From NCBI GenBank assembly GCA_040220235.1, contig JAVJTO010000060.1: a stretch of DNA of 64,000 bases; one strand, given 5' to 3'. Position 1 is the stretch's first letter, and every line of letters starts with the position of its first letter. The notes beneath the pieces are model-generated. The model made no database searches. It saw nothing but the letters and a program-made list of their open reading frames with translations, and was not told the DNA's origin. Positions 12,201 through 29,520 of the stretch are shown piece after piece. This DNA comes from Coleofasciculus sp. B1-GNL1-01. GTDB lineage: Bacteria > Cyanobacteriota > Cyanobacteriia > Cyanobacteriales > Coleofasciculaceae. The position numbers were made by a program, and so were the translations under genes.

Positions 12201-12428
12201 GAGTTTTATCCCAGGTTGCCGATAGAATGTTGTGCGAAGGATTTCATGGCGATTGACGACTTGCTGTAAAGCGTCTTCTAGTACTTCTGTTTTGAGTTTA
12301 CCTTCAATCCGAAGAACACACTGGGCACGGTAAACGAGATTATTGTGTTGTAATGACCACAGATGTTTTTGCTGTGGGGAGAGTCGAAAGCCTTGAATAG
12401 TTTGATTTTGCATTGTTTGATTTTGCAT
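9213..12428 (-). CDS. NRPS: interface (I) domain-A(Asp)-T
   Basis: C-like domain with LPSLCADSW instead of HHxxxDG; code DLTKVGHVGK; GGHSL; C-terminal tail GRKEIEL. Confidence 0.92.
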   Translation of the reverse strand: MQNQTMQNQTIQGFRLSPQQKHLWSLQHNNLVYRAQCVLRIEGKLKTEVLEDALQQVVNRHEILRTTFYRQPGIKLPIQVIHNSGIPLWNYFNLSDSDPKEQQAKIEELFQKEKCFIFNFEQDSILRSSLISLSATQHILLITLPSLCADSWTLKNLVKELSYIYSKGLKNEKLTDEPVQYIQFSEWQNELLEEDAELGKAYWHKQNLGSLPALTLPFERKPSGKTGFEPDVYALRIEPEVVAKLEKIATLHQTTVAEFLFACWQTLIWRITGQSEIIVSTVFSGRKYEELQDVLGLSAKWLPVHCSFQKDFKFTEVLLQISEPLRNHEKWQEYFLWEDSTGSKDNLVNLPISFEFEEGFYKYDAGEVSFSIEKQYVCFERFKVKLTCMRREESITAEFHYDPELIDVESIKCLAGQFQTLLENLLKNPDAKVNELEILSDRQRQQLLVEFNQTQTNYPQDKCIHHLFEAQVEKTPNNIAVLFEDQHLTYAKLNQRANQLAHYLQNLGVESEVLVGIYLERTLDIIIAILGILKAGGAYLPLDTALPKEGLAFRLQDAQTPILLTQQSLVEKLPENSAKVVYLDTDSDVIAQESSENPTSKVTGENLVYVLFTSGSTGKPKAVAIEHRQLLNYLYSIQGVLSLPAGSSFAHVSTFAADLGNTVIYPSLCSGGCLHVVSSERVADPQALADYFQRHPIDCLKITPSHLAVLLANSSSRSILPRQRLVLGGEVASWDLIEQTQQHNPDCQIINHYGPTEATVGVTTFEVESNSTGLESATVPIGRPIANTQIYLLDAEGQPVPIGVAGELHIGGAGLSRGYLNSPELTQEKFIPNPFSNSKSERLYKTGDLARYLSDGNIEFLDRIDHQVKIRGFRIELGEIEAVLNTHSQIQQAVVIATEDIAGNKRLVAYIVTRDESLTNNQLREFLFSKLPEYMVPSAFVTLDILPLTPNGKVDRKALPAPDEEISREREYVAPRTPGEEIIANIFASVLGVQKVGIHDNFFELGGHSLLATQVISHLREAFQMELPLRSLFEKPTVALLSHRIETMRLALAQVSHPSVAEGKGRKEIEL
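9313..9866. repeat. Near-identical copy of 19744..20297 (end of A domain plus T); partial third copy at about 16533..16803
   Basis: Long identical DNA stretches, e.g. gtggctagtagagaatgtcctcccaattcaaagaagttgtcgtggattcctaccttttg at 9391 and 19822. Confidence 0.85.
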
Positions 12429-12444
12429 TTTTTGTTCAAATCCT

Positions 12445-15400
12445 TTAAATGTTTTTACTAGAAATCATTTCTCCCATTGCCACTACAATTTTGCGTGAAC
12501 CAACGTAGGGATTTCGCCCATGAGCAATTAACATATTATCTAGCATCAATATGTCTCCTTGCTGCCAAGGGAAGCTGACTTTAGCTTCTTGATAAACTTC
12601 TCCAATTTCTGCCATGACTGAGTCTTCAATGGGAGAACCATCACCGTAATAGACATTGCGCGGTAGATTTTCTTCCCCAAGCGTTGATAGTAGAGATGCC
12701 TTAATAGCTGGCTCTAGGCATGATATATGGTGTAATTGCACTTGATTAAAAAATAATGACTCTCCTGTTTTGGGATGTTGAGAAATTGCTGGTCGCACTT
12801 TGCGGATTCTTAGGCTATTACCTGAGAGCCACTCGAAATCAATGCCAGACTGACGACAATAATTTTCGACAGCTATTTTGTCAGTGGTGTGAAAGAAATC
12901 TTGCCAACTTACATCTAGACCTTCGATGTAGTTGCGGACATACATTAATTGTTTTTGCTTGAATCTTTCTCGTAGTTTTGGATTGAGACGTTGATAGACT
13001 TTGCGGCAGTCAACAATCGGAGTTTCTCCACCTTGGTGCGCTGGCTGCACGCAGAAAAACCAAATTTTAAGGGGCCACTGGTGCATGTGGGAACTTTCGT
13101 TATGGAAGAGAATGGCTTGGTTAGAAGGATAAGGGGTAGAACCATAGACTCTGCCACTGATGCCTTCCCTAGGTAAGTCACCATACTCACCAAACAACTT
13201 GGGACAAATAGCACTGGCTACTTTTTCAAATTCAGGTACTGACTTGACATTGAATCCTCGGAAGAGAATTGCACCGTGTTGCAGCAAATTAGTTTCAATG
13301 AATTCGCGTTTGTTAGTTGCCCAGTCAGCTAGGTCAATATCATCTCCATCGGGTTGAATAACATAAGGGAGGTTTTGTCCAGGCTGGAGATAATCTGTTT
13401 TGATTAACTCTTTTTGGGGTAGGCTAACAGTCTTAGGCTTGATAGTTTTGAATTTCTTGAACTGCGCTTTTTCACGCTGATTTGTTTCAGCAATTTGTTG
13501 CTGCTTTTCAGATTCACTAAGCATTTCTAAGGTATTAATTCTGGTATCGGGGTGTTGGGCAATGCTGTGTAGCAGCGTCTGAAAGTGAGCTGACAGACGG
13601 GTAATCGCCTCAGCTTCAAATAGGTCAGTGCGGTATTTCCAATTGCCAACGATTCCTTGCTCTGTGTCTTGCATAAAGAGAGCTAAATCAAATCTGGCTT
13701 TATCGCTATTGACTTCTATTGAGGTGAGAGTCAGACCTGAAAACTCCACAGCAGGCATAGGAGTATTCTGGAGGACAAATAACACCTGAAATAGGGGGGT
13801 TTTACTTGTAGCCCGGTCTGGACGCAAACTTTCTACCAATTTGGCGAAAGGCAAATCTTGATGAGCATAAGCTCCTAAGCAGACTTCCTGCACTCTTTTT
13901 AGTAGTTCTCGGAAGGTGGGGTTACCAGACAAGTCACTGCGCAATAACAGGAGGTTGATAAAAAATCCTATTAGGGGTTCTATTTCAGCTCGATGGCGAC
14001 CGGCAACATCAGTACCAACTATAATGTCATCCTGATTGGTGTAGCGGTACAGTAGTGTCTGAAAAGCTGCCAGTAAAGTCATAAACAGGGTTACCCTTTG
14101 TTTGCGACTCAGTGTTTTGAGTTGTTGAGACAGGTGAGTTGATATTAGGAAGGATTGAGCTACAGACTCCTGTTTTCTGGTAGTTAGAGGGGGAGGGTCT
14201 GCTATTTTCTGTAAATTCAGTGTAGCGGGAGCACCCGCCAGTTGTTGCCGCCAGTAAGAAAGCTGGTTTTCCAGTACTTCTCCTTGTAGCCACTGACGCT
14301 GCCAGACTGCAAAGTCTGTATACTGGATGGGAAGCTCTGGTAGCGGAGAGGGCTGACCTTGAGAGAATGCCTCATAGAGTGTTGCCAGTTCTGTTATCAA
14401 CACTCCCATAGACCATCTATCAAAAATAATGTGGTTTGTACTGAACAGTAGCACATGTTCCTGCTCATTTAGTTTTAGCAGCTTTACTCTCAGCAACGGG
14501 TCTTGAGCTAAGTCGAATAATTTTTGACTCCACTCATTGGCTAACCGCTGGACTTCACTCTTCTGCTCAGCTTCTGGCAACTGGCACAAGTTCACTACCG
14601 ACAAACTAATATCTAAGGATGGGGCGATCCGCTGAATGGGTTGTCCCTCAACAACAGGAAATGTAGTGCGAAAGACTTCATGACGACGCACAATTTCGTT
14701 GAAGGCCTGCTCCAGTGCTGCTACATTGAGTAAACCAACTAGACTTACAGCGTCTAGTTCGTTATAGCTACCTGAGTCTAGTTGCTCTAGAAACCACAGC
14801 CGCTGCTGAGCAAAAGACAGGGGTAATTTGCCATTTCGTGAGACGCGCTTGATGGATTGCTCGAAGTCTTTCTGGAGCACTTTTGTTGTCTGGAAGTTAG
14901 AAGGGGGATAGCCTCCAACTTCTGGAGATTGGCAATGAGCGATAAGCGATCGCAACGCTTCGATAAAACTCTGTGCCAGGTTCTCAATCGTAGCTCGCTG
15001 ATGAATTGCCTCACTGTAAGTCCAATCGAGTCGTAGCTGACCTCCAGCAACAATCCCGTTAATATCTAATAGATGGCTGCGACTTCCCCGCAAGCTAAGT
15101 GCTTGTCCGCTAGGTTCTCGAGCTGGTACAAACAGAGATGACTCCTGGAATACCTGGTCAGTCTGGCCCAGATAATTAAACGCGATTTCAGCTTGAGGCT
15201 GATGCTGCCAAGACGTTGTCTCCTCACCCTTGAGATAGCGTAAAACGCCATAGCCAATTCCTCGATTTGGAATACTTCTGAGCTGTTCTTTAATCGTCTT
15301 TAAAGCATCTCCCGGACTAGCAGATTCCTCGATATCCAGCAAAACGGGGAAGATAGTAGTGAACCAGCCCACAGTACGTGATAGGTCTACATCATCAAAG

Positions 15401-18400
15401 ATTTCCTCCCGTCCGTGACCCTCAAGGTCAATTAGCAGTGAGTACACCCCTGTCCACTGGGCAAAAGCTTGTACCAGCGCTGTAAGCAGTACATCATTAA
15501 TTTGAGTCTGATAAGCTGCCGGTACTTCCTGTAGCAATGCTTGAGTTTCTTCCTTGCTCAGAGCTACCGACACATTCCTCGCTTTAGCCACAGTATTATC
15601 GCCTTCAGGAAAGTCTACTGGGATGTGGGCAATTTGCCGACGAGACTCCCTCAGCCAGTAATCCAACTCTTGTTGTAGTGCTTCAGATTGGGCGTACTCC
15701 CTTAATCTTTCCGCCCAATACTTGAACGAGGTTGTTTTAGGTGACAACTGAATCTCTTTGCCCTGACTGAGTTGTTGGTAGGCACTCTGGAGGTCTTCTA
15801 ACAAAATCCGCCAAGAGACACCATCAACGGCTAGGTGGTGGATGACCAACAGCAAGCGGTCAGGCTTGTTGGCACCTAAGTTAAAGTAGGCTACCCGCAC
15901 CAGTGGTCCTGAGGATAGATTGAGGCTGGCTTGTAGTTCAGTCGCAGCTTTCGATATGGCTAGCCCTCGTTCTGTCTCTGAAACCGTTGACAAATCTAGC
16001 AGAGTAAATGGCGTTAACTCATCAGGGTTAACCTCAAGCTGCTGCCAGTCTGTTTCCTGGTGAACAAAGCACAGGCGCAGAGCATCGTGGTGTTCGAGCA
16101 GTTTCTGCACTGTCTGCTCCAACAGTGCCGGGTCAAGTGCTTGCCGAACTTCCAGTAAAATTGATTGATTCCAATGATGAGACTCAGGAAGATTTTGCTC
16201 AAAGAACCAGTGCTGAATAGGAGTTATAGGCACTTTACCTGTCACCAACCCCTGTTGAGCTTGAATAACTCGGTTCGTGGCAGCCACTGCTGCTAGTTCG
16301 GCAATTGTCTGGTGTTCAAACATCTGCTTGATTGTCAGATTCAGACCAGTCTGGTTTGCTCTAGCGACGATCTGGATACTGAGGATGGAATCCCCACCTA
16401 AGTCAAAGAAATTATCGTGTACTCCTATCTTTTCGAGTCTGAGAACCTTAGCCCAAATTTCAGCTAGGACTTTCTCAACAGTAGTACGAGGTGCTACAAA
16501 AGTTTCTTCCTCCTCAGATCTGGTTAGATCGGGTGCTGGTAGTGCTTTTCGGTCTACTTTGCCGTTGGGTGTTAAGGGTAAGGTGTCTAAGGTGACAAAG
16601 GCATTTGGCACCATGTATTCGGGTAGCTTTAAAAAGAGAAATTCACGCAGTTGCTTAGTAGTGAGTGATTCATCTCTAGTAACGATATAGGCAACTAAAC
16701 GTTTGTTACCAGGAAGATCTTCTCTGGCAATAACTACAGCTTGTTGGATTTGGGAGTGAGTGTTGAGGAAGGATTCGATTTCTCTGAGTTCGATGCGGAA
16801 ACCCCGAACTTTCACCAGGCGATCGAGGCGACCAAGAAACTCAATTGTTCCGTCCGTTCGGTAACGCACGCGATCACCCGTTTTGTAAAGACGCGCTCCT
16901 GGTGTTTCACTAAATGGATCGGGAATAAACGCCAGTGCTGTGAGTTCCGGTCGGTTTAAATAACCTCTAGCGACACCAACTCCTCCGATGTAAAGTTCTC
17001 CTGGAACACCTACTGGCACTGGCTGTAAGTATGGGTCGAGGATGTAAGTCTTGGCATGGCTAATTGCTTTGCCGATGGGCAGTTCTTGCCCTGAAATATC
17101 GACATCTGTAAGATCTGACAAGTCAACAGCGGTCGTCACGATGGTTGCTTCTGTAAGACCGTAGGTATTGACCAGGCGTACCCTTCGATCGACCTGCTGC
17201 TGCCAGGTAGTGAGTCGCTTTGGCAACGCTTTTTCACCGCCAATAATGACCAAGCGCACACAATCCGGTAAGGTCAAATTCAGGGCTGGCAATTCAGCAA
17301 CCATTTGATGCCAGAATGCAGTGGGTAAGTCGAGTACCGTCAGTTGCCAATCGTCGCAACATCGGAGAAATGCTGGGATGGAACTCAACATTTCGTCGGT
17401 TCGCAAGACTAGCATTGCTCCTCGTGCCAGACAGGGAAAAATTTCTTCAGCAGCAGCATCGAAGCTGATGGACGCAAATTGCAAAATGCGATCGCTAGAA
17501 GAAATCGCGTATTCAGCCATCGCCGCCTGAGTATAATTCACCAACGACTGGTGTTGAATCATGACTCCCTTGGGTTTGCCGGTGGAACCAGACGTATAGA
17601 TCGCATAAGCCAGGTTCTCAGGTCGAGTGTGGCTAACTGGATTTTTGCGGCTTTCCTGTGCAATCAACGTCCAGTCTGCATCCAAGCAAACCACAGACGA
17701 TTTGAGATCGGGAAGCCTTGCGACTAAAGCCTCCTGAGTGAGCAGAACCGACACCTGTGAATCTGATAAAAGAAATCGTTGACGCTCTTGAGGATAGGCT
17801 GGGTCTACAGGCAGATAGGCTCCTCCTGCTTTGAGAATTCCTAGCAATCCCACGACCATCTCTAAGGAACGTTCTACACAGATTCCCACCAGTACCTCTG
17901 GTTTTACGCCAAGCTTTTGCAAATGATGCGCTAGCTGATTGGCTCTGACGTTTAGTTCTCGGTAGGTTAGCTGTTGCTCTTCAAATACTACCGCTACTGC
18001 ATCCGGTGTTCTCTCTACCTGCTTCTCAAATAACTGATGAATACATTTCTCTAAGGGATATTCACTCTCGGTCTCATTCCACTTCACCAACAACTGATGA
18101 CGTTCTGCTTCACTCAACAAGGGTAATTCAGCTACAGTTTGTTGAGGATTTTCTACAATGGCTGATAACAAGTTCTGAAAATGAGCTGTCATGCGCTCAA
18201 TGGTTGACCCATCAAACAAGTCAGTATTGTATTCCCATTCGCCCACTAATCCCTGAGTCGTTTCAGTCATTGACAGGGTTAAATCAAACTGAGCAATTGT
18301 GCTTTCCCGCTCTAAGGGAGTCAACGTCACACCGGGTAACTCTACTTCCCCCATCGGTGCATTCTGCAAGATAAACATCACCTGAAACAGAGGAGAATGA

Positions 18401-19647
18401 CTCAAGGAGCGTTGGGGTTGCAAGGCTTCTACTACTTGCTCAAAAGGCACGTCCTGATGTTCGTAGGCTTTGAGTGTGGTTTCCCTAACTTGTGCCAGTA
18501 AGTCCTTGATCCTGGGATTATCTTCAAAACGGGTTCTCAACACCAAAGTATTCACAAAAAAGCCAATCAAAGATTCAATTTCACGGCGGTGGCGATTGGC
18601 TATAGGAGAACCCATTAAAATATCTGATTGACCGCTATAGCGATAGAGTAAAGTGGCAAACGCCGCCAACAGGGTCATAAATAAAGTTGTCCCCGACTCC
18701 CGAGACAGGGTTTGCAACTTTTGGGTTAAATCAGTATTTAAAGTAAAACTGTGAGTCGTCCCTCGGTAAGTTTGCACAGTTGGACGAGGGTGGTCAGTCG
18801 GTAATTGTAACAATTCTGGCGCACCCTGCAATTGAGAAAGCCAGTAATTGAGTTGAGCTTCTAGTACCTCTCCACTCAACCACTGTCTTTGCCAAATGGC
18901 AAAGTCGGCATACTGGATTGGTAATTCGGCTAAGGGAGATGGTTCTCCTGCACCAAAAGCTTGATATAAACTAGACAGTTCTTGGATAAATACACCCATC
19001 GACCAACCATCAGAGATAATATGGTGCATTGTCAGTAACACTACAGATTCTGTTGCTGATAGCTGCAACAAACTGCACCTAATTAAGGGTGCTATCTCCA
19101 AGTTAAAGGGGGTAATGGCTTCTTGTTGTGCTTGTTGGTGTAGGACAGTTTCTCGTTCTGTTACTTCTAGTGGCTCTAAGTCCACCACATTTATCTTCAG
19201 GGTGGCTTCTGAGTGAATTACCTGTATGGGTGTGCCGTTAACAGTTTGGAAGCTAGTGCGTAGTACTTCGTGGCGGCGTACTATTTCTGATAAGGCTTGT
19301 TGCAGGGCATTAACATCCAAGTTACCACTGAGGCGGACTGCCCCTGGTATGTTGTAAGTGGCACTTGACCCTTCCAGTTGGTTGAGGAACCACAGTCGCT
19401 GCTGGGCAAAGGACAGGGGTAAATCTGTATCCCTTGGGACAGGCAGAATTGGCTTAATACTAAAACTTGAGGCAAAATCAGTTTTTTTCAAAAATTCGAT
19501 TATTTCTGATTTGCGCTCTCGTAGCTGAGACTTCAGAGTCGGTGTCAGCGTTCCTTCAGGGGCATTATAATGTAGCTGCTCACCATCAACCCAGAACCTT
19601 ACGTCTAGACTTTGAAAGCAAGATAAGAATTCATCAATGGGTTTCAT
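12445..19647 (-). CDS. NRPS: docking-C-A(Lys-like)-T-E-C-fused Fe(II)/2OG beta-hydroxylase (TauD family)
   Basis: HHIISDGW; code DAEDIGTIVK; GGDSI; E domain HHLAVDGVSW/EGHGRE; second C NHIIFDRW; TauD FHNESSH...DNMLIAHGR. Confidence 0.92.
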   Translation of the reverse strand: MKPIDEFLSCFQSLDVRFWVDGEQLHYNAPEGTLTPTLKSQLRERKSEIIEFLKKTDFASSFSIKPILPVPRDTDLPLSFAQQRLWFLNQLEGSSATYNIPGAVRLSGNLDVNALQQALSEIVRRHEVLRTSFQTVNGTPIQVIHSEATLKINVVDLEPLEVTERETVLHQQAQQEAITPFNLEIAPLIRCSLLQLSATESVVLLTMHHIISDGWSMGVFIQELSSLYQAFGAGEPSPLAELPIQYADFAIWQRQWLSGEVLEAQLNYWLSQLQGAPELLQLPTDHPRPTVQTYRGTTHSFTLNTDLTQKLQTLSRESGTTLFMTLLAAFATLLYRYSGQSDILMGSPIANRHRREIESLIGFFVNTLVLRTRFEDNPRIKDLLAQVRETTLKAYEHQDVPFEQVVEALQPQRSLSHSPLFQVMFILQNAPMGEVELPGVTLTPLERESTIAQFDLTLSMTETTQGLVGEWEYNTDLFDGSTIERMTAHFQNLLSAIVENPQQTVAELPLLSEAERHQLLVKWNETESEYPLEKCIHQLFEKQVERTPDAVAVVFEEQQLTYRELNVRANQLAHHLQKLGVKPEVLVGICVERSLEMVVGLLGILKAGGAYLPVDPAYPQERQRFLLSDSQVSVLLTQEALVARLPDLKSSVVCLDADWTLIAQESRKNPVSHTRPENLAYAIYTSGSTGKPKGVMIQHQSLVNYTQAAMAEYAISSSDRILQFASISFDAAAEEIFPCLARGAMLVLRTDEMLSSIPAFLRCCDDWQLTVLDLPTAFWHQMVAELPALNLTLPDCVRLVIIGGEKALPKRLTTWQQQVDRRVRLVNTYGLTEATIVTTAVDLSDLTDVDISGQELPIGKAISHAKTYILDPYLQPVPVGVPGELYIGGVGVARGYLNRPELTALAFIPDPFSETPGARLYKTGDRVRYRTDGTIEFLGRLDRLVKVRGFRIELREIESFLNTHSQIQQAVVIAREDLPGNKRLVAYIVTRDESLTTKQLREFLFLKLPEYMVPNAFVTLDTLPLTPNGKVDRKALPAPDLTRSEEEETFVAPRTTVEKVLAEIWAKVLRLEKIGVHDNFFDLGGDSILSIQIVARANQTGLNLTIKQMFEHQTIAELAAVAATNRVIQAQQGLVTGKVPITPIQHWFFEQNLPESHHWNQSILLEVRQALDPALLEQTVQKLLEHHDALRLCFVHQETDWQQLEVNPDELTPFTLLDLSTVSETERGLAISKAATELQASLNLSSGPLVRVAYFNLGANKPDRLLLVIHHLAVDGVSWRILLEDLQSAYQQLSQGKEIQLSPKTTSFKYWAERLREYAQSEALQQELDYWLRESRRQIAHIPVDFPEGDNTVAKARNVSVALSKEETQALLQEVPAAYQTQINDVLLTALVQAFAQWTGVYSLLIDLEGHGREEIFDDVDLSRTVGWFTTIFPVLLDIEESASPGDALKTIKEQLRSIPNRGIGYGVLRYLKGEETTSWQHQPQAEIAFNYLGQTDQVFQESSLFVPAREPSGQALSLRGSRSHLLDINGIVAGGQLRLDWTYSEAIHQRATIENLAQSFIEALRSLIAHCQSPEVGGYPPSNFQTTKVLQKDFEQSIKRVSRNGKLPLSFAQQRLWFLEQLDSGSYNELDAVSLVGLLNVAALEQAFNEIVRRHEVFRTTFPVVEGQPIQRIAPSLDISLSVVNLCQLPEAEQKSEVQRLANEWSQKLFDLAQDPLLRVKLLKLNEQEHVLLFSTNHIIFDRWSMGVLITELATLYEAFSQGQPSPLPELPIQYTDFAVWQRQWLQGEVLENQLSYWRQQLAGAPATLNLQKIADPPPLTTRKQESVAQSFLISTHLSQQLKTLSRKQRVTLFMTLLAAFQTLLYRYTNQDDIIVGTDVAGRHRAEIEPLIGFFINLLLLRSDLSGNPTFRELLKRVQEVCLGAYAHQDLPFAKLVESLRPDRATSKTPLFQVLFVLQNTPMPAVEFSGLTLTSIEVNSDKARFDLALFMQDTEQGIVGNWKYRTDLFEAEAITRLSAHFQTLLHSIAQHPDTRINTLEMLSESEKQQQIAETNQREKAQFKKFKTIKPKTVSLPQKELIKTDYLQPGQNLPYVIQPDGDDIDLADWATNKREFIETNLLQHGAILFRGFNVKSVPEFEKVASAICPKLFGEYGDLPREGISGRVYGSTPYPSNQAILFHNESSHMHQWPLKIWFFCVQPAHQGGETPIVDCRKVYQRLNPKLRERFKQKQLMYVRNYIEGLDVSWQDFFHTTDKIAVENYCRQSGIDFEWLSGNSLRIRKVRPAISQHPKTGESLFFNQVQLHHISCLEPAIKASLLSTLGEENLPRNVYYGDGSPIEDSVMAEIGEVYQEAKVSFPWQQGDILMLDNMLIAHGRNPYVGSRKIVVAMGEMISSKNI

Positions 19648-22600
19648 AGTATTCCCTCCTCTCGAACACCAAAAGCAGCAGTTGTAAAACTTTGCTGTTT
19701 TTGGGTTGTCAAACGTATATTTTCAACTTGCTCAGATATACCGGCCACAGTCGGTTTCTCGAACAGGCTGCGTAGGGACAACTCCATCAGGAACGCCTCG
19801 CGCATGCGAGAAATAATTTGAGTGGCTAGTAGAGAATGTCCTCCCAATTCAAAGAAGTTGTCGTGGATTCCTACCTTTTGTACGCCTATAACTGAAGCAA
19901 AGATGTTGGCGATTATTTCTTCACTTGCCGTGCGGGGTGCTACGTATTCATGTTCTCGGCTGATTTCTCCATCTGGTGCTGGCAGTGCTTTTCTGTCTAC
20001 TTTGCCGTTAGGTGTTAGGGGGAGAGTGTCTAAGGTGACAAAGGCAGAAGGCACCATGTATTCGGGTAGCTTTGAAAAGAGGAATTCACGCAGTTGCTTG
20101 CTGGTGAGTGATTCATCTCTAGTAACGATATAGGTAACTAAGCGTTTGTTACCAGCAGTGTCTTCTGTCGCAATGACTACAGCTTGTTGGATTTGGGGGT
20201 GGGTGTTGAGAACGGCTTCAATTTCTCCGAGTTCGATGCGGAAGCCGCGAATCTTTACTTGATGGTCAATGCGACCGAGGAATTCGATATTGCCATCCGG
20301 CAGCCAGCGAGCTAGGTCTCCAGTCCTATACAATCTTTCTTCTTCTGCCTTTTGACTTTTCCCGATTTCCTTCGCAAACGGGTTGGGAATAAACTTTTCC
20401 TGCGTTAACTCAGGCAGATTCAAATACCCTTGTGCTAGTCCATCTCCTCCTACATATAGCTCACCCGTAACACCTGGTGGTAAAAGATTGCCATACTTGT
20501 CCAGTATGTAAATTTGTGTGTTTGAAATCGGTTTTCCAATCGGAATCGTATTTTTCTTCATATAGTCTTCTAGAGCTTCTCCTAAATCTGCTTTTGGATC
20601 GTCCGCCAACTGCAAATGTATCGCTTCTTTCACGATAGCAGTTTCTGTACCACTTGAGTCACTTCTTTGTACGGGAAGATTTTTTATACCATCAAGTTTC
20701 CCTTGACTTCTTGCTTCAATTTGATTGGCGATTCTCAGTTGATCCTCAAGAACACTCTGTAAATCTGTAGCGGTTGTATTCGGATTAGACAAAACAGCCC
20801 GAAATACAATGATTTCTTTGTCTTTACCATAGGCAGTGTCCATCAGAGTGCTCTTAGAGACAAAGGTTAGTCCTTGTTCAAATTGTTCTCTTTGTATCTG
20901 TGTATTGAGTTGATTAATTCTTTGGATGTCATCGTCACTCAAGGAGTTTTGTTGTGATTTCGCTCTTAAATTCTCAGGAATATATCGATAATTAACGATA
21001 TTCAACCCTGGTTCCATGACGAGATCGAATGGTTCCAATAGCTCAATCAGTCTAGAAAAATATTGGGCTTTCTCTATGCCATTGTCAATCAGAATCTCGT
21101 ATCCCCTTTTACCGATAATATGAAGTGCCCCGTGTAAGCATAACGATAGTGCCGAACGTGACCCTTCAATCGTGAATCGTCCCACGTCAAATGTATCTCG
21201 CTGAGCCTGGTAACGGGCTGTGGTCTCGGCAAAGTTTAACATCTGCGGATCTTTAAACAGACAAACACTAATACCCTGAGGTAGGTATAACTGTTTATGC
21301 CCACAAATAGTTATCGAATCAGCTTTGTTGATTCCCTTCAATTTTCCTTTATGCTTCTCGGAAAATATCGTCGCACCACCCCAAGCAGCATCCACATGAA
21401 AATGAATACCGAATTCCTGCGCGATATCGCCCAGTTCAAATAAAGGATCGATTTCACCAGTTTCTGTTGTTCCAGCGATGCCTACAAGCGCCAGAATGTA
21501 TAGCTTATTTCTACTACATTCGCGGATTCTTTCTTTGAGCAAATTTAGGTCTAATTTTCCGTCATCATTACTGTCAATAAAAACAATGTTGTCTGTCCCC
21601 AAACCTAACATTGAAGCTGCCTTATTGAAAGAATAATGCATTAGCCGAGAGCCAATGATAACGATATCGTCATATCCTTTTTTACTCAGAACTTTATAAA
21701 GGCTTTCTTTTGATAAATTGCCGGATTTTTTTGTGTTTAACAATCCCGAATTTCGCGCACACAATAAAGCACTGATGTTTGCCGTTGTACCGCCGGTTGT
21801 TATAATACCCAGGTTTCTATTTTTTTGCTGAATATTTTCCTCGTAAAATTCACCTGAAAAGTTATAAACAAGACGATGCAATATGGCGATCGCTTCCCGT
21901 TCCAAAAACATCAAAGACTTTGATGTCTCGATTTTCACCAAATTTTGGTTCAATCGCGAAATCATCTTGCTCATATCATGCATAAAATCGGGCAAAGCCG
22001 ATGTCATATGCCCGATGAATGTAGGAGAGCCTGTATCGATCGCATATGGAAGCACCTCCTCGGACAATTTATCGTAATAGTCGTCAACGGTTAAAGGATA
22101 TGAGGGCAACTCGCTCCGTTGAAACTTTGTAGCTAGCATTTCTGGACTCACGCCAGGCTTCGTAAACGGTTTCTGGTGAACCCCAAGAACCTGGTTTTCG
22201 GTTGCACCACGAACAACTTCTGGCTTGAAATATTGCAGTATTCGTTGCCGTGTTTCCCAAAAATTGACTTCAAAGCAGGTCACGTCAGCAGCAACTTCTG
22301 AAGAGCCGTAGATATTGAACAATCTGGCAGAACTGAGTTTCTGGTGAAATGCCTCAGCCAACGTTAGTGGTAGGGCTTCACCGCTGCAAAAGACATATTT
22401 GAGATATCGAAGTTGTGTCAGTTGTTGGGGCGCATTGTCCAGCATCGCTTTGAGCAGGGAGGGAACCAGAACAATTCTAGTTATCTTGTTATCGCTCAAC
22501 AGGCTCATTAGCCTGGGAATATCGCCTCGTATATTATCTGGAACAACCACGAGCGGAATCCCTTTGAGAAGGGGAGAAAATATTTCCGCAACATGATCGA

Positions 22601-24788
22601 CAAAATTGATGGACGTTTTCTGACAGCAAATCTCATCTGCCCCAAATGGTAGGGTTTCCCACATCCAATGCAAGCGATTGACGATACCACGATTTTTACC
22701 TAGAACGGCTTTGGGTCTTCCAGTAGAACCGGACGTATAGATTGCGTATGCCAGGTCATCCAGTGTTGCTTGACAATCTAGATTTTCGACGCTTTCTTTA
22801 GCAATGGCATCCCTATCCCTGTCTAGACAGACGATATGGGCGTGTTGAAGGGAAATTTTTTCAGTCAAAGGCTCCTGGGTCAATAGGACATGCACATTGG
22901 CGTCTTCGAGCATGAACACCAGTCGTTCTTGCGGATAATTCGGATCTAACGGCACATATACGCCACCGGCTTTGAGAACACCCAGCAAACTCACTACTAG
23001 ATCAAGAGATGGCTCAATACAGATTCCCACCAGCACTCCCGAACCAACAGAGAGAGACCGTAAATAATGCGCTAGTTGATTGGCTCGTTGGTTCAACTGC
23101 CGATAAGTTAGCTGCTGGTTTTCAAGAACGAGTGCGATCGCATCTGGAGTGCGTTTCACCTGCTCTTCAAATAACTGATGAATACATTTATCTGAGGGAT
23201 ATTCACTCTCGGTATCATTCCACTCGGTCAACAACTGATGGCGTTCTGCTTCACTCAACAGGGGCAATTGGTCAACTCGCTGTTGTGGATTAGCCGCGAT
23301 CGCTTCGAGCAAGGTTTGCAAGTACCCACTCATCCGGCTTATTGTGGCAGCATCAAACAAATCGGTGTTGTATTCCCAGAAACCCTCTAGCCCCGAATCC
23401 GTTTCTGTAATATCCAAGCGCAAATCCAACAAAGCCCTGGTGCGTTTAACCTTAACAGGTGTTAAGGTCAGCCAAGGCAGTTCACATTTCACTTTTGGAG
23501 TATTTTGTAAGACAAACGACACCTGGAACAGCGGATTGTAGTTGGCATTCCGTTCTGGCTGTAGTTCCTCCACCAGCTTTTCAAAGGGCAAATCCTGGTG
23601 ATCATAAGCTTCCATCGTCACCTGCCGCACTCGACCTAAGAGTTCCTCAAAGGTCGGGTTGCCTGAAAAATCGGTACGTAGTACTAGGGTGTTGAGGAAA
23701 AAGCCAATGAGTCCTTCAATTTCAGCTCGGTTACGGTTAGCGATAGGTGAACCAACGATGATATCTTCTTGCCCACTGTAGCGGTAGAGCAAGATTTTGA
23801 AGACTGCCAGCAGGGTCATGAACAGGGTAGCCTCGGCTTTTTTGCCAACAGTCTTAAGGGTCTCAGTCAAACTCTTGGGCAACCGAAATGATTCCTTTTC
23901 CCCCCGATAAGTCTGAACTGGTGGTCGGGGTCGGTCTGTTGGCAGTGGCAGCAGGGGTGGAGCTTTTTCCAGTTGCTGCTTCCAGTAAGAGAGTTGGGAG
24001 TGTAGTTTTTCTCCCTGCAACTGTTGTCGCTGCCAGACGGCGAAGTCGGCATATTGAATTGGCAGTTTAGGCAACGGCGAAGGTTTTCCGGTAGAAAAGG
24101 CTTGGTAAAGGGCTGACAATTCACGAATGATTATGCCCAATGACCAGCCATCAAAGACAATGTGGTGGATATTGAATAGCAGCACATGTTCCTGTTCGCT
24201 TAGCTGTACCAGCATCCAGCGCAGCAGAGGACCTTGAAGCAAGTCGAAGGGACGTTGACTTTGCTCAGTCGCGAGGCCCTGGACTTCCATTTTCTGCACC
24301 GCTTTTGGCAACTGGCGCAGATCTACCACGGGCAGTGTCAAGGTCAGGTTTGGGGCAATGATTTGAACGGGTTGCGCCTCCACCATCTTGAAAGTGGTGC
24401 GCAGAGCTTCGTGGCGTTGCACCATCTCGTTGAGACTCTGCTCCAATGACGCCACGTCAAGCAAACCTGTTAGCTGTATTGCTACGTGTTCATTGTAAAA
24501 AGGGTTGCCGGGTTCCAACTGTTGGAGAAACCATAGCCGCTGCTGGGCAAAGGATAAAGATAGATTTCTCTCTCTCGAAACAGGTTGAATAGCCTGAGAC
24601 GTACTGTTTGAGGCAAGATTAGCCTGGTTGAGAAATGCAATAATTTCGGCTTTGCGTTCAGAGATCTGAGCGATTAGATCTGGTGTTAGTGCTTCTTCAG
24701 GGGCATTACAACGCAAGTGATCGCTTTCAACCCAAAGCTTTACATCCAGACTATAAAGGTAAGATAAAAATTTATAAATCGTCGTCAT
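19644..24788 (-). CDS. NRPS: docking-C-A(beta-Ala-type, with inserted group II PLP decarboxylase)-T
   Basis: HHIVFDGW; code VDAVFSIADK; insert with FIGHMTSALP, NQNLVKIETSK, HVDAAWGG, CGHK; GGHSL. Start placed at ATG 24788 (MTTIYKFL) by similarity to the N-terminus at 9216. Confidence 0.92.
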   Translation of the reverse strand: MTTIYKFLSYLYSLDVKLWVESDHLRCNAPEEALTPDLIAQISERKAEIIAFLNQANLASNSTSQAIQPVSRERNLSLSFAQQRLWFLQQLEPGNPFYNEHVAIQLTGLLDVASLEQSLNEMVQRHEALRTTFKMVEAQPVQIIAPNLTLTLPVVDLRQLPKAVQKMEVQGLATEQSQRPFDLLQGPLLRWMLVQLSEQEHVLLFNIHHIVFDGWSLGIIIRELSALYQAFSTGKPSPLPKLPIQYADFAVWQRQQLQGEKLHSQLSYWKQQLEKAPPLLPLPTDRPRPPVQTYRGEKESFRLPKSLTETLKTVGKKAEATLFMTLLAVFKILLYRYSGQEDIIVGSPIANRNRAEIEGLIGFFLNTLVLRTDFSGNPTFEELLGRVRQVTMEAYDHQDLPFEKLVEELQPERNANYNPLFQVSFVLQNTPKVKCELPWLTLTPVKVKRTRALLDLRLDITETDSGLEGFWEYNTDLFDAATISRMSGYLQTLLEAIAANPQQRVDQLPLLSEAERHQLLTEWNDTESEYPSDKCIHQLFEEQVKRTPDAIALVLENQQLTYRQLNQRANQLAHYLRSLSVGSGVLVGICIEPSLDLVVSLLGVLKAGGVYVPLDPNYPQERLVFMLEDANVHVLLTQEPLTEKISLQHAHIVCLDRDRDAIAKESVENLDCQATLDDLAYAIYTSGSTGRPKAVLGKNRGIVNRLHWMWETLPFGADEICCQKTSINFVDHVAEIFSPLLKGIPLVVVPDNIRGDIPRLMSLLSDNKITRIVLVPSLLKAMLDNAPQQLTQLRYLKYVFCSGEALPLTLAEAFHQKLSSARLFNIYGSSEVAADVTCFEVNFWETRQRILQYFKPEVVRGATENQVLGVHQKPFTKPGVSPEMLATKFQRSELPSYPLTVDDYYDKLSEEVLPYAIDTGSPTFIGHMTSALPDFMHDMSKMISRLNQNLVKIETSKSLMFLEREAIAILHRLVYNFSGEFYEENIQQKNRNLGIITTGGTTANISALLCARNSGLLNTKKSGNLSKESLYKVLSKKGYDDIVIIGSRLMHYSFNKAASMLGLGTDNIVFIDSNDDGKLDLNLLKERIRECSRNKLYILALVGIAGTTETGEIDPLFELGDIAQEFGIHFHVDAAWGGATIFSEKHKGKLKGINKADSITICGHKQLYLPQGISVCLFKDPQMLNFAETTARYQAQRDTFDVGRFTIEGSRSALSLCLHGALHIIGKRGYEILIDNGIEKAQYFSRLIELLEPFDLVMEPGLNIVNYRYIPENLRAKSQQNSLSDDDIQRINQLNTQIQREQFEQGLTFVSKSTLMDTAYGKDKEIIVFRAVLSNPNTTATDLQSVLEDQLRIANQIEARSQGKLDGIKNLPVQRSDSSGTETAIVKEAIHLQLADDPKADLGEALEDYMKKNTIPIGKPISNTQIYILDKYGNLLPPGVTGELYVGGDGLAQGYLNLPELTQEKFIPNPFAKEIGKSQKAEEERLYRTGDLARWLPDGNIEFLGRIDHQVKIRGFRIELGEIEAVLNTHPQIQQAVVIATEDTAGNKRLVTYIVTRDESLTSKQLREFLFSKLPEYMVPSAFVTLDTLPLTPNGKVDRKALPAPDGEISREHEYVAPRTASEEIIANIFASVIGVQKVGIHDNFFELGGHSLLATQIISRMREAFLMELSLRSLFEKPTVAGISEQVENIRLTTQKQQSFTTAAFGVREEGIL

Positions 24789-24867
24789 AGCTCTATTTCC
24801 TTTCTTCCTTTCCAAGCTTTACATTCAGGCTATAATCGTAGTCATAGCTCTATTTCCTTTCTTCCTT
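24784..24867. repeat. 27-bp direct repeat duplicating the stop/start junction
   Basis: gtcatagctctatttcctttcttcctt at 24784-24810 and 24841-24867. Confidence 0.9.
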
Positions 24868-27800
24868 CTCCGGCAGCAATGGGAGAGCCTGATGCTTGGG
24901 CGAGAGTCAAACGAATTGCTTCAACGCGCTCAGCTAAACCAGCTACGGTGGTTGGTCTCTCAAAGAAACTATGTAGGGACAGCTCTATTTGAAATTCTTT
25001 ACGCAACTGAGAGATAACTTGAATAGCCATTAGAGAATCTCCCCCCAGTTCAAAGAAGTCATCATGGATACCTACTTGCTCGATCCCAACAGCTTGTCGC
25101 CAGGTATTCGCAATAGTTTGTTCGACCTCGTTGCAGGGAGCAACATAGGCATTCCGCAAGTTTGATCTCGAGTGGAGTGATAATGAATCTTTCTTTTTTG
25201 AGTATTCTGTATCTCGTAAAGATTCAAGCTTAAGCCATTGGTCAATCCTCGTGTGCAAGTCTCCAGCCGAGACAACAACTTGAGGGAGTTCAGCCATTGA
25301 TAACACACGCCTAAATGCCTCCACACCTCCCTTTGGGGACATAGCTAATTTAGACAAGGTGGCTCCAATCCCTGCTTCTTGCTTTTCTTCTTCCCTAAGC
25401 CCCCAGTTATCCCAGTTCACGCTAATCCAGGGACAAGAGTCTGCCTGGTCGTGCTTGAAAGCAAAGGCATCCATAAAGATGTTCGCTGCGGAATAGGAAA
25501 CGAATCCTAAGCCTCCCAAAATAGATGCTAAAGAGGATGTTAATAGAACAAAATCAAGATTTCTTCCTTGCAAAACTTTTTCCAAGACAAATAGTCCATA
25601 CACTTTGGGCTGAAATTGCAAATGACTATCGGTTTGAGAAGTTTCTTGAATAGCACAATGTGTATTTTCGAGATTCCCAGCAGCGTGGATGACACCATGA
25701 ATTTCACCAAAGCGCTCATATGTGTGGGAAATTGCTGTCTGCATTTGTTGCTCGCTTGTCACATCGGCACTAATGACCAGAACCTCGACTCCTAGCTCCT
25801 CGATTGTCCGCACTTTCTGTATCTTTTGGCTGACTTTATCCTGCCGATCGTGAGTCGCTAGCCATTGCTCCCACTGGGAGCGCTCAGGCAGCCCCTTTCG
25901 TCCGATTAGGATCAACTTAGCCCGTACTGTCTTCGCTAGATATTCTGCCAATACCAAACCGATGCCACCCAGTCCACCAGTGATTAGGTAGACTCCTCCT
26001 TCCCTCAAACGTGTTCTGCTTGTACTGCTATCATTTAAACGGACAGCTTCAAAGGTCTGAACCCAACGATGATTACCACGGTAGGCAACTACTAAATCAC
26101 TTGGCTGTACGGTAAATTCCCTTATTAAGTGGTCTATCAGTTTCTGTGCTTGCTTTGTCCCAGATTCAGGAATCACTACATCAAAGCTACAGCATGTTAT
26201 GTTTGGATATTCCTGTGGAATTACCTTGCACGGACCTAACACAGTCGCTTTCTCTGGAAATAACTTCTCGTCGCCAGTCACTTCATGTACATTGCTGGTT
26301 ACGACCATGAGTTGAAGAGGCTCAGTAACCTTCTGTTCTCCTAGTGCTTGTGCCAGAAAGAGCAGACTGTAGAAACCGAGATTTTGACAATCTTCAAAGA
26401 ACTGATGTGGTGATTGTGTCTGTTCGCCTAGCTTGTTGCTAGGAAAAGTATTGCTGGCTGTGATACTCCAAAAATGCGCAATCCCTTGTGGGGTTAAATC
26501 CCGACTCTGAAGTTCTTGAACCAGGGCATCATAGTCATCCCGTTGTTGGGGATTAATTGTGTATGCGTACTCACTGAGTTTGCTAAACTGATCTCCCACT
26601 CTCACAGTGATGACATCATGGTTCTGCTGTTCCAGCCGTTTTGCTATTTCTGAGCCGACTCCATAGGCATCGACAAAGACTAGCCAGCATGACTTTAACT
26701 CTACCAGCTCTCTTTCTTGGTAGAAGTCAAGAAGCATAGATTGTTTCCAAACTGGCATGTAGAACCAGTCGGCAATATTTGGTTTCTTGTGTAACGGATC
26801 TTGACGCGCCGTTGCTAGGAAGGTTGACTGGTTTGGTTCAATCCAGTAACGCTGACGCTCAAAGGGATAGGTAGGTAAGGGAATATGATGACGTCGTTCA
26901 TAGGCATAAAAACCTGACCAATCGACTTTGACACCTGCTAACCAGAGACGACCTAAGCTATTCAGTAAAAAGGCGATATCTGACTGTTGCTCCTGGGGAT
27001 GGCGTAGCGAGGTTAGCACCCCGTTATTATTGATCTGATGCTGCTTGGCAAACGTACTCAACGTCCGTCCAGGACCAACTTCCAGCAAAACTCGCTCAGG
27101 TGTTTTGAGCAACTCAGTCACTCCTGCACTGAAACGCACAGGTTGTCGTAGATGTCTTGCCCAGTAATTCGGATCTGTTGCTTCTGATGGGGTAATCCAA
27201 GTTCCAGTGAGATTCGAGACAAAAGGAATTTGGGGAGGATTGAAGGTGATTTGATGTAATAACTCTGTAAATGGCTCAATCATTGGCTCCATCATCGGAG
27301 AATGAAAAGCATGAGAGGTATGAAGCCTTCGACAGGGTATGCTTTTTTCTTGTAAGGTCTGTTGCAATTGTGCGATCGCCTCTGCTGAACCAGACACCAC
27401 AGATGAAGTAGGGCTATTGCTTCCTGCCAGCGCCAGGTCTTCTCCCAGTAACGGTTGCACTTCTGGTTCTGGTAGTTGAACGGACAGCATCGCGCCAGAG
27501 GGCAGTTGCTGCATCAATCGTCCTCTAGTTGCTACTATTGCTAAGGCATCTTCTAGGGAGAAAACTCCCGCTAGACACGCTGCTACATATTCCCCAATGC
27601 TGTGACCGATCATCACTTCGGGATACACACCCCACGCCATCCATAACTTAGCTAGCGCATACTCAATTACAAACAACGCAGGTTGGGTAATGTGAGTTTG
27701 TTGAAGTTGTTGTGTCGCCTCTTGCTCCTGGGTTGTACTGGGGTAGAGTAAATGACGCAAATCTAGCCCGAGGTGAGGTTTGATCCGTTCACAGCAGTCA

Positions 27801-29488
27801 TCAACGTGTTCAGTAAAAATTGGCTCATGCTGGTAGAGTTCCAGTGCCATATTGACGTACTGCGAACCCTGCCCGGAAAACATAAACACCACGGGGCGAT
27901 TACCGGCTTCTTGGTAGTGGGTGAAAACTCGTTGCGAATCTAGATTTGTCAGCGCCTGCACTGCATCATCCAGAGTTTGACACACTAACATCCGGCGATG
28001 CTCGAAATCTCGGCGACCAACCTGAAGTGTATGAGCAACATCGGCAAGATTCAAATCGGGATGTTGCTGGAGGCAATTCGCCAAATTCACTGTGGCGGTT
28101 TCCAGTGCCGTACTTGTCTTGGTCGAGAGCAACAACAACTGCCAGGGACGAGAAGGACTAGAGGGTTCAATTGCCGGAGCTTCTTCGAGAATCAGATGGG
28201 CATTAGTGCCACCAAAACCGAAGGAACTAACTCCAGCGCGACGAGGGATGTCGTTGTTTTTCCATTCAGACAGCGTTGTGTTGACGTAAAAAGGACTATT
28301 TGCAAAATCTATCTTGGGATTGGGTTCCTCAAAATGCAAACTGGGTGGTATTTGCTGATGCTTGAGTGCTAGAACAGTCTTGATAAGACCTCCCACTCCA
28401 GCGGCATTATCTAAATGCCCTACATTTGTTTTAAGCGAACCGATGGCACAGAAGCCACACTTCTGCGTACTGGTGTGAAAAGCTTTTGTGAGCGCTGCGA
28501 TTTCAATAGGGTCTCCTAGGGATGTTCCTGTACCGTGGGTCTCGATGTAGGTAATTGTTTCAGGTTCAACTTCAGCCATAACTTGAGCTGATCTAATCAC
28601 CTTCACTTGACCATTTATGCTGGGTGCAGTGTAGCTAACTTTGGAAGACCCATCGTTATTGATCGCCGAACCTTTGATCACAGCATGGATACAGTCTCCA
28701 TCTGCTATTGCCTCCTCTAACCGCTTCAACACCACAAGACCTATCCCCTTGCCTATCCCAGTTCCCTCTGCTTTGGCATCAAAGGCACGGCAACGTCCGT
28801 CAGGAGAATAAATTCCTCCCTTTTGATACAAATAACCAGCATATTTTGATATTGAAACGCCACCGGCCAAAGCCATATCACATTCGCCACTCAGCAGACT
28901 TTGGCATGCCAAATGAACAGCGACCAACGAAGTTGAGCAGGTAGTTTGAACTGCATAACTTGGTCCATCCAGGTTTAATTTGTAAGATACTCGTGTGGTT
29001 ACAAAGTCTGGATTATTAGCAATAGAAACTTGTAAATGACTTACGTTGTTAATAATTTCCGGATTTGAATAAATATTAAATAAGTAACTATTTACGCTTA
29101 GACCTCCGAAAACCCCAATCGACTTCTTATAAGTTTCTGAATTGTAGCCAGCGCTTTCAAGAGCCTCCCAAGCAGACTCTAAGAAAATACGGTGTTGGGG
29201 ATCCATGATTTCAGCTTCTCTGGGAGTAAATCCAAAGAATGACGCATCAAACAAATCTACATTTTTGACTACGCCACCTGCCTTAACATAATTAGGATCG
29301 CTGACTAACTTAGGATCTATAACTAAATCCTTTAATTGCTGGTCAGTCAAAGAAGAAATCGATTCTACGCCGCCTCGGAGATTTTGCCAAAATTCATCAA
29401 GGTTTTTAGCTCCAGGAAAACGACCAACCATGCCAATTATGGCTATTTCTAAACCCGTGGTCTTACTGGATTTTTTGGGATTAATCAT
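24842..29488 (-). CDS. cis-AT PKS module KS-AT(malonyl)-KR-ACP
   Basis: QTTCSTS, HGTGT, GHSIG/HAFH, GGLGGIG, PKV..YSAAN, GGDSL; tail GRKEIEL. Confidence 0.94.
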   Translation of the reverse strand: MINPKKSSKTTGLEIAIIGMVGRFPGAKNLDEFWQNLRGGVESISSLTDQQLKDLVIDPKLVSDPNYVKAGGVVKNVDLFDASFFGFTPREAEIMDPQHRIFLESAWEALESAGYNSETYKKSIGVFGGLSVNSYLFNIYSNPEIINNVSHLQVSIANNPDFVTTRVSYKLNLDGPSYAVQTTCSTSLVAVHLACQSLLSGECDMALAGGVSISKYAGYLYQKGGIYSPDGRCRAFDAKAEGTGIGKGIGLVVLKRLEEAIADGDCIHAVIKGSAINNDGSSKVSYTAPSINGQVKVIRSAQVMAEVEPETITYIETHGTGTSLGDPIEIAALTKAFHTSTQKCGFCAIGSLKTNVGHLDNAAGVGGLIKTVLALKHQQIPPSLHFEEPNPKIDFANSPFYVNTTLSEWKNNDIPRRAGVSSFGFGGTNAHLILEEAPAIEPSSPSRPWQLLLLSTKTSTALETATVNLANCLQQHPDLNLADVAHTLQVGRRDFEHRRMLVCQTLDDAVQALTNLDSQRVFTHYQEAGNRPVVFMFSGQGSQYVNMALELYQHEPIFTEHVDDCCERIKPHLGLDLRHLLYPSTTQEQEATQQLQQTHITQPALFVIEYALAKLWMAWGVYPEVMIGHSIGEYVAACLAGVFSLEDALAIVATRGRLMQQLPSGAMLSVQLPEPEVQPLLGEDLALAGSNSPTSSVVSGSAEAIAQLQQTLQEKSIPCRRLHTSHAFHSPMMEPMIEPFTELLHQITFNPPQIPFVSNLTGTWITPSEATDPNYWARHLRQPVRFSAGVTELLKTPERVLLEVGPGRTLSTFAKQHQINNNGVLTSLRHPQEQQSDIAFLLNSLGRLWLAGVKVDWSGFYAYERRHHIPLPTYPFERQRYWIEPNQSTFLATARQDPLHKKPNIADWFYMPVWKQSMLLDFYQERELVELKSCWLVFVDAYGVGSEIAKRLEQQNHDVITVRVGDQFSKLSEYAYTINPQQRDDYDALVQELQSRDLTPQGIAHFWSITASNTFPSNKLGEQTQSPHQFFEDCQNLGFYSLLFLAQALGEQKVTEPLQLMVVTSNVHEVTGDEKLFPEKATVLGPCKVIPQEYPNITCCSFDVVIPESGTKQAQKLIDHLIREFTVQPSDLVVAYRGNHRWVQTFEAVRLNDSSTSRTRLREGGVYLITGGLGGIGLVLAEYLAKTVRAKLILIGRKGLPERSQWEQWLATHDRQDKVSQKIQKVRTIEELGVEVLVISADVTSEQQMQTAISHTYERFGEIHGVIHAAGNLENTHCAIQETSQTDSHLQFQPKVYGLFVLEKVLQGRNLDFVLLTSSLASILGGLGFVSYSAANIFMDAFAFKHDQADSCPWISVNWDNWGLREEEKQEAGIGATLSKLAMSPKGGVEAFRRVLSMAELPQVVVSAGDLHTRIDQWLKLESLRDTEYSKKKDSLSLHSRSNLRNAYVAPCNEVEQTIANTWRQAVGIEQVGIHDDFFELGGDSLMAIQVISQLRKEFQIELSLHSFFERPTTVAGLAERVEAIRLTLAQASGSPIAAGEGRKEIEL

Positions 29489-29520
29489 TGATAAATTACC
29501 TAAAAAAATAGCTAGTTTAA

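Follow-up and report, generated by a model that had tools for sequence, protein, structure and literature searches.

A PanP-like decarboxylase inside a predicted β-alanine-type adenylation domain, and its apparent loss in the cryptophycin synthetase

The window analyzed here, a 64,000-nucleotide stretch of contig JAVJTO010000060.1 from Coleofasciculus sp. B1-GNL1-01 (assembly GCA_040220235.1), encodes a nonribosomal peptide synthetase (NRPS) whose adenylation (A) domain is interrupted by a pyridoxal phosphate (PLP)-dependent decarboxylase. We propose that this protein belongs to a family spread over several phyla and that module 1 of the cryptophycin synthetase CrpD very probably descends from the same family by loss of the insert. 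The decarboxylase would convert free aspartate (Asp) to free β-alanine (β-Ala), which the host A domain would then adenylate, a sequence of events that we regard as likely. The decarboxylase-in-A architecture is not new, since it has been published for JamL; what is new is the evidence on how large the family is and where CrpD module 1 comes from.

Results

Anatomy of the interrupted adenylation domain

The 1723-amino-acid (aa) NRPS is encoded by a single open frame on the minus strand (window 19644–24815; Table 1). Pfam profiles give the order TubC_N, condensation (C), A and carrier (T) domain, where PF00282 at residues 919–1278 splits AMP-binding into two stretches and AMP-binding_C and PP-binding follow downstream. 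The A5 motif lies at residues 834–840, and the A domain resumes with IPIGKPISNT at residue 1424. A first-pass annotation of the DNA had described an in-frame insert of about 570 aa between A5 and the IPIGKPISNT/A6 region; we find 573 aa (residues 851–1423), with all the decarboxylase motifs it named in their places and the PLP lysine at window 21296–21294. The spacing from A5 to PIG is 590 residues, compared with 23–32 in most uninterrupted relatives, which corresponds to a net insertion of ~565 aa.

Motifs A3, A7, A8 and A10 are kept around the insertion, as expected for an A-domain fold. The specificity code VDAVFSIADK, proposed in the first annotation, was recovered by motif position and by alignment with six other A domains of the window (positions follow PheA numbering); its amine-binding Asp is displaced by one position, as in β-Ala-type codes. 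Both the shifted Asp and the A10 lysine are found in 98 of 101 aligned family rows. In an alignment-based structure model (pLDDT 85.4, pTM 0.62), the A core superimposes on PheA at 1.4 Å over 394 residues (Z 52.6); both linkers have pLDDT below 50, so that the model does not report domain orientation or any channel there. On the best reading of the code, the host A domain is predicted to adenylate β-Ala.

The insert as a PanP-derived decarboxylase

The top-scoring family for the insert is PanP (TIGR03799, E 3.7e-154). The PLP lysine, the His, the Asp, Tyr1202 and Arg1339 are invariant across 101 aligned family members, in agreement with a group II PLP decarboxylase. In GAD65, Tyr1202 has its counterpart in the loop Tyr and Arg1339 in the Arg that binds the carboxylate, by alignment; the functions of these residues are given in PMC3870968. 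Conservation within the protein is highest in the insert (0.67, versus 0.49–0.57 in the A parts). The same PLP, Tyr and Arg residues occur in PanP (Vibrio fischeri PanP is cited in PMC10102598), and the insert shares 48% identity with a cyanobacterial PanP whose own TIGR03799 score is above the cut-off. Unlike PanP, the insert is embedded, is ~50 N-terminal profile positions short, and belongs to a separate clade with Cys1171, Ser1183, Gln1203 and Phe1312.

We built a tree of 172 decarboxylase domains, with one outgroup as root, one short match left out and FastTree local values as supports. All inserted copies fall into one clade of 125 (support 0.974), beside which stands a clade of 41 free PanP proteins that does not include the insert. 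We infer from the profile and tree data that the insert represents a distinct PanP-derived subfamily, with Asp as its presumed substrate. Short free-standing copies are scattered within the inserted clade. Free-standing decarboxylases nested there (P0123, P0124, P0132 and L012:1787-3256), 53–77% identical to the insert, look like escaped inserts; the Crocosphaera copy (L012) lies on an 11 kb contig without an NRPS, and the same genome also has PanD. A supposed rule, that a Gln six residues past the PLP lysine selects Asp, was dropped: no paper on it was found, and the Gln is present in only 56 of 93 inserted copies.

The modelled insert separately matches the group II decarboxylase 4rlg (TM 0.81 by target). 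Two copies modelled as a dimer score 0.90, compared with 0.00 for the best control, with at least 93% agreement of contacts between runs and pLDDT of at least 88. Of 30 solved pairs, 20 attain the mark applied, as does 1 of 23 single chains; given that solved group II dimers exist, the pass may reflect likeness rather than binding. By this likeness, the insert is likely to dimerize as group II decarboxylases do, in keeping with the dimerization expected at the outset.

Size, spread and origin of the family

A search for long homologues returned 237 proteins; the 120 listed all carry PF00282 and PF00501. The order A-half/decarboxylase/A-half recurs at the same site in 117 of 119 listed homologues (the window's own protein excluded), and some relatives lie on contigs of 5.5–6.9 Mb, which rules out an assembly artefact as the source of the layout. 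The full layout is present in 92 of the best 150 representatives at 50% identity and a partial one in 10; the other 48 lack a flanking A domain. Carriers include cyanobacteria, Pedobacter, Chitinophaga, Thiothrix, Microbulbifer, Candidatus Electrothrix and a SAR324 genome, and the fused module occupies differing positions in different clusters. In public sequencing runs only relatives are present (best share 0.25), with no contig spanning the whole stretch; the A6-side junction is bridged by one relative's contig, and across the A5-side junction no contig from these runs reaches 31 bases.

A tree of 134 A-domain N-terminal halves places all 78 inserted domains in one clade of 94 (FastTree support 0.935), and a single old insertion is the simplest reading. 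The GC content of the insert (0.405, below 0.46–0.50) hints at a recent transfer, which fits less well since all 78 inserted A domains share one clade. Proteins of ~1040–1110 aa that consist of A(decarboxylase) without C or T domains (P0044, P0065, P0072–P0086 and similar) occur, for example, in Thiothrix, Chromatiaceae and Candidatus Kentrum; the A3 loop is altered in several of these proteins.

A remnant of the insert in CrpD

Searching among longer proteins, we found A domains that are 80–88% identical in the pocket and yet lack the decarboxylase, CrpD included. The halves of the first A domain of CrpD (ABM21572.1, from Nostoc sp. ATCC 53789) are 81% and 84% identical to those of the host A domain, 145 of 165 residues in the pocket region are identical (88%), and seven of nine variable code positions are shared; the C domain of CrpD module 1 is only 33% identical to that of the window protein. 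At the A5–A6 site of CrpD, the equivalent of residue 850 joins the equivalent of residue 1359 directly, the core 851–1358 being absent. What is left is a 63-residue insert remnant (CrpD residues 782–844; P0484; L070:16919-17938), and window-protein residues 1359–1433 still have a match in CrpD: the last decarboxylase helix is identical at 17 of 23 positions and the final part of the linker at 31 of 38. This scar scores 184, versus at most 52 in 200 shuffles and 29–43 for seven other NRPS proteins of the window. The helix kept in the scar also terminates free PanP proteins, and the direction of change is therefore loss in CrpD. By all appearances, the cryptophycin synthetase descends from an insert-bearing ancestor; no mention of the scar was found in the literature searched, key subscription papers lying outside that search.

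The crp cluster contains a panD gene (L070:27316-27657, two genes past the P450 gene next to crpD), which we take to be CrpG, acting on methylaspartate; no PanP-type gene is present within the 34 kb fetched. Code position 235 is Gly in CrpD and Val in the host A domain, consistent with room for a methyl group in CrpD only. CrpD module 1 is presumably the loader of the β-amino acid of cryptophycins. These compounds contain β-alanine or β-aminoisobutyrate, loaded as the free β-amino acid (PMC8842026, PMC12305651).

Altogether six scarred A domains lie at three places inside the window's subclade of the A-domain tree, and one protein, P0379, has both scarred and intact modules. These losses speak for a free β-amino acid as the substrate of the A domain, and for a single insert being able to feed a neighboring module.

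A further deletion was seen in public runs X2 and X4, where window 20614–22249 corresponds to an assembly bubble: one form is intact, and the other lacks 544 codons of the decarboxylase in frame (depths 38.6 and 32.8, flank 73.8). The short side is only 28 bases and hence weak; the bubble may represent two paralogues or two strains.

Association with β-Ala supply genes

Among 401 cyanobacterial genomes, a β-Ala-type A domain occurs in 30 and a PanP-type gene in 26, all 26 within the 30, an overlap inflated by kinship (13 of the 26 are from one genus; 3–9 candidates were scored per genome). Two of the 26 PanP-type genes are fused, and 23 of the 24 free ones lie at most 18 kb from a β-Ala-type module on the same contig. 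Around uninterrupted modules (15 of 28 genomes fetched), a free PanP is near in 11 genomes, PanD in three and neither in one, for which the fetched stretch starts at a contig end. No PanD, and no PanP besides the insert, is present in the window or in the flanks fetched for 15 fused loci (L001–L011, L013–L015, L017). From these neighborhoods, β-Ala-type modules are accompanied by a free PanP, a PanD or a fused insert, and PanD stands in for PanP beside related modules. The source genome has a separate PanD and no other PanP, so that the insert is not needed for pantothenate.

Three clusters with a fused module (L004:10171-14268, L005:17526-21506 and L006:17374-21468) also contain a downstream uninterrupted module with the code VDW[VI]ISLAN; no free PanP is present in their fetched flanks, the related clusters L053 and L056 have one, and the insert of the L004–L006 clusters may supply two modules. 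Small operons outside assembly lines (L064:7378-11800, L065:6370-12100) combine a β-Ala-type A protein of ~820 aa with panD and a different group II decarboxylase, which suggests a beta-alanyl-amine product. On a plasmid of Paenibacillus polymyxa M1 (L071:12001-13459), a PanP-like gene directly follows an NRPS gene; it is matched in two frames and is probably frameshifted.

Proposed mechanism

We propose that the insert is a PanP-derived, homodimeric, PLP-dependent aspartate 1-decarboxylase that would convert free L-Asp to free β-Ala; as a homodimer, it would hold two copies of the NRPS subunit together. The host A domain, normally folded around the insertion loop, would adenylate β-Ala and load the T domain, and the C domain would link β-Ala to the ketide-extended chain of the upstream polyketide synthase (PKS) module. 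Hand-over would most likely be by local diffusion, so that one insert could serve sister modules, and the fusion, by tying precursor supply to the module, would allow the module to move between clusters as one cassette. We infer the substrate, the product and the order of the steps from the anatomy, the conservation, the distribution, the co-occurrence and the CrpD scar; the folds and the dimer are models. The first annotation had proposed that the insert makes the substrate of its own host: co-occurrence and the CrpD scar are in line with this part, although the insert subfamily is distinct from PanP and its substrate is a prediction. The description as "self-supplying" needs qualification, since sister modules that have lost the insert, within the same proteins, make free, diffusible β-Ala the probable meaning.

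Several observations weigh against this reading, besides the kinship noted above. First, the insert scores 514 bits (whole protein) or 517.5 bits (insert alone) with TIGR03799, below the curated cut-off of 606.1, which is reached by none of seven members of the inserted subfamily tested and by two free PanP proteins. Its match begins at position 54 of the 522-position profile, and against a free PanP it begins at residue 70; the PF00282 domain and PanP as best family agree with the PanP-type decarboxylase first annotated, whereas the word "complete" says a little too much for a protein lacking the first 53 profile positions. Second, Gln1203, Ser1183, Phe1312 and Cys1171 are present in 93 of 93 inserted copies, unlike 45 free proteins (selected for Asp at 1171, which makes the comparison circular in that column); with active-site positions that differ from free PanP, a changed substrate is possible. 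Third, code position 239 is Ala, where uninterrupted relatives have Trp. Finally, the cluster has an EctB-type transaminase, and the JamL insert is labelled a diaminobutyrate decarboxylase (DDC) by B6db (PMC3870968).

Alternative explanations

The first alternative keeps the family and the CrpD descent and adds true channelling: the docked dimer would pass β-Ala into the A pocket, shielded from the coenzyme A precursor pool. The invariant Cys1171, Gln1203, Ser1183 and Phe1312 would then be adaptations to channelling, and the unit C module of cryptophycin would have arisen by deletion of the decarboxylase and widening of the pocket for a methyl group. Channelling would on this view have founded the multi-phylum family of A domains that make their own precursor. 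The family and the CrpD descent by themselves we hold to be very probable; true channelling in addition we consider unlikely.

The changed active site and the score below the PanP cut-off could also indicate another substrate: glutamate to γ-aminobutyrate, 3-methylaspartate to 3-aminoisobutyrate, or 2,4-diaminobutyrate (Dab) to diaminopropane used elsewhere, with the module loading another omega-amino acid. The EctB-type enzyme makes Dab, the B6db label of the JamL insert points the same way, and the closest characterized A domain sits in a methyl-β-Ala pathway. With the L-2,4-diaminobutyrate decarboxylase profile (NF052646), however, the insert scores 134–139 bits, compared with a cut-off of 900, and diaminopropane has no carboxyl group to adenylate. 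Dab itself is accounted for by a separate module beside EctB with the code DIWEMTADDK, which we take to specify Dab. Against the methylated substrate, position 235 would leave room for a methyl group in CrpD and not here, and the place of PanP beside related modules is taken by PanD, an enzyme dedicated to Asp decarboxylation. Another substrate therefore seems doubtful.

A free-Asp reaction has a further competitor in on-carrier tailoring, where Asp is loaded via its side-chain carboxyl and the T-bound aspartyl thioester is decarboxylated, as by CtaD/CtaF in closthioamide biosynthesis. CtaF is proven to decarboxylate carrier-bound Asp to β-Ala and ignores free Asp (PMC7183216), and carrier-bound decarboxylation has been the speculation for the embedded Pyridoxal_deC domain in PMC3870968. 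Such a route would explain the active-site changes of the subfamily and would match the action of other inserted domains. CtaF, however, is from a different decarboxylase family, and the A pocket, with Ala at code position 330 and Asp at 331, has no basic residue for a free α-carboxylate by comparison with VinN. Moreover, near-identical A domains, CrpD included, persist after deletion of the insert, and in many family members the protein does not include a T domain. On balance we hold on-carrier action to be improbable.

That the insert is a passenger (dead, dispensable or a dimerization device only, with β-Ala from the housekeeping PanD) is a notion compatible with its several deletions, with the PanD of the genome, with the Cys replacing Asp three residues before the PLP lysine and with the neutral effect that tailoring-enzyme dimerization can have on an NRPS (PMC8795117), but highly improbable in view of catalytic residues that are invariant, and an insert more conserved than its host, over about 45–90% identity, and of deletions found where another source is at hand, either an intact sister module (P0379) or panD.

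Relation to known systems

JamL (Q6E7J8; jamaicamide, Lyngbya majuscula) has the same split of an A domain around PF00282, followed by a carrier domain. By the published layout (KS-AT-ADH-KR-CP-C-A-PLP-A-CP, with the PLP domain embedded in A at residues 3094–3479; PMC3870968), the window protein most likely shares the JamL-type architecture; compared by description only, insertion site and subfamily are likely the same. The two differ in context, JamL being a PKS–NRPS fusion of a neurotoxin pathway and the window protein a stand-alone C-A(decarboxylase)-T subunit of a siderophore-like cluster. JamL was not found among the long homologues, nor in 7 and 51 genomes around a Moorena locus. From the work of Edwards in 2004, β-alanine is reportedly incorporated at the JamL module. 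The function of the embedded domain is stated as not clarified in PMC3870968, whose survey counts two Pyridoxal_deC cases in total and which already raises the dimer constraint. The first-pass claim that there is no characterized precedent thus stands as regards biochemistry, and not as regards the layout: we found no biochemical test of the architecture in the literature, with key subscription papers that may describe it outside the search. An exact literature search on six code strings retrieved no paper. As precedents, corramycin (which uses a separate ComE), janustatin (whose paper does not mention a decarboxylase), and cyanochelin B, cyanochelin C and fatuamide (no decarboxylase in the texts) were rejected.

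Methyltransferase-interrupted A domains of families 1–7 are interrupted at a2–a3, a6–a7 or a8–a9 only, in a paper (PMC8341866) where the word "decarboxylase" is absent; the protein studied here, with a decarboxylase at A5–A6, falls outside these families, and the site is as unusual as first annotated. As in methyltransferase- and oxidase-interrupted A domains (PMC8341866, PMC8795117), a foreign enzyme occupies a surface loop of a working A domain. Those inserts modify the carrier-bound residue, whereas the decarboxylase most likely acts before activation. An NRPS dimerized through a tailoring enzyme is known from BmdB–BmdC, where dimerization is neutral for rate (PMC8795117).

The surrounding gene cluster

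Besides the features in Table 1, the cluster encodes a sulfotransferase, a transaminase of EctB type, a class III aminotransferase, two methyltransferases and a terminal reductase, and it has divergent MFS and acylase genes. Immediately outside the window are transport genes for ExbB, TonB and FecCD. The assembly order is FAAL, A module, PKS, A module, TauD/epimerization (E) module, A module, PKS, decarboxylase-bearing module, E module, TauD module, methyltransferase-interrupted module and reductase. From the codes we take the module specificities to be Ser, Gly, Asp (TauD, E), Dab-like, then Lys-like (E) and Asp (TauD).

With its FAAL start, Asp modules with TauD, and adjacent acylase and iron-transport genes, the cluster resembles cyanochelin clusters and is predicted to direct a siderophore. 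It shares with the cyanochelin C cluster a FAAL start, a β-Ala module, a Lys module with epimerase, TauD/Asp modules, a divergent acylase and a transport cassette alongside, and differs in its two PKS modules, sulfotransferase and reductive release. In the cyanochelin C cluster, the supply of β-Ala is ascribed to the free transaminase CcsR (bioRxiv 10.64898/2026.07.24.740629).

A second interrupted A domain is found in the last module (window 3754–9216, minus strand), with a methyltransferase (residues about 736–858) between A2 and A3. The terminal reductase, the class III aminotransferase and two methyltransferases come after it, which suggests a methylated amine terminus. The sulfotransferase gene (window 45548–46516, minus strand) separates the first PKS module from the Gly module and has no mention in the cyanochelin B or C cluster texts searched. 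At window 29521–35172 (minus strand), a module is split round the EctB-type transaminase into a lone C domain, ectB and an A-T protein with a truncated C domain (code DIWEMTADDK); the arrangement recurs in L002 and partly in L010.

Table 1. Window coordinates of the decarboxylase-bearing NRPS gene, its parts and its cluster
Feature	Position	Strand	Details
NRPS gene	19644..24815	-	TubC_N docking-C-A(decarboxylase)-T, 1723 aa; amino-acid module no. 5 of the assembly line
TubC_N docking domain	24624..24779	-	residues 13-64, after a PKS module
Condensation domain	23229..24569	-	residues 83-529; HHxxxDG intact
A domain, N-terminal half	22266..23198	-	residues 540-850; A3, shifted Asp740, A5; code VDAVFSIADK
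In-frame insert	20547..22265	-	residues 851-1423, 573 aa; PanP-like group II PLP decarboxylase, preceded by a short N-terminal helix with linker and followed by a C-terminal linker
Decarboxylase core	20730..22142	-	about residues 892-1362; shares 48% identity with free PanP across 475 aa
CGHK motif	21294..21305	-	PLP lysine K1174 (window 21296-21294) and C1171 (Asp in most free PanP)
Catalytic-loop Tyr1202 and Gln1203	21207..21212	-	Tyr aligns with GAD65 loop Tyr; Gln subfamily-specific
Arg1339	20799..20801	-	aligned to carboxylate-binding Arg of glutamate decarboxylase (role: PMC3870968)
Last decarboxylase helix and linker	20547..20741	-	residues 1359-1423; portion kept as scar in CrpD
A domain, C-terminal half	19980..20546	-	residues 1424-1612; A6, A7, A8, A10 lysine
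Carrier (T) domain	19731..19916	-	GGHS serine intact
Cluster	639..63603		FAAL-initiated NRPS/PKS; eight amino-acid A domains, three TauD hydroxylases, two PKS modules

Significance

The embedded PLP domain of JamL has been an oddity since 2004, its function still unresolved in 2013, and now most likely becomes a member of a large family, of which the window protein, a single-module subunit, is a small and testable example. If the proposed mechanism is true, the family would represent a class of interrupted A domains that make their substrate instead of modifying it. Genome-mining tools could then call β-Ala from the architecture, and the insertion site, which tolerates ~570 residues, could be of use in NRPS engineering, with the module as a portable β-alanine cassette. 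The CrpD scar indicates that a clinically studied pathway probably changed its building block, losing a built-in supplier and using a free one, and it makes CrpD a natural deletion control.

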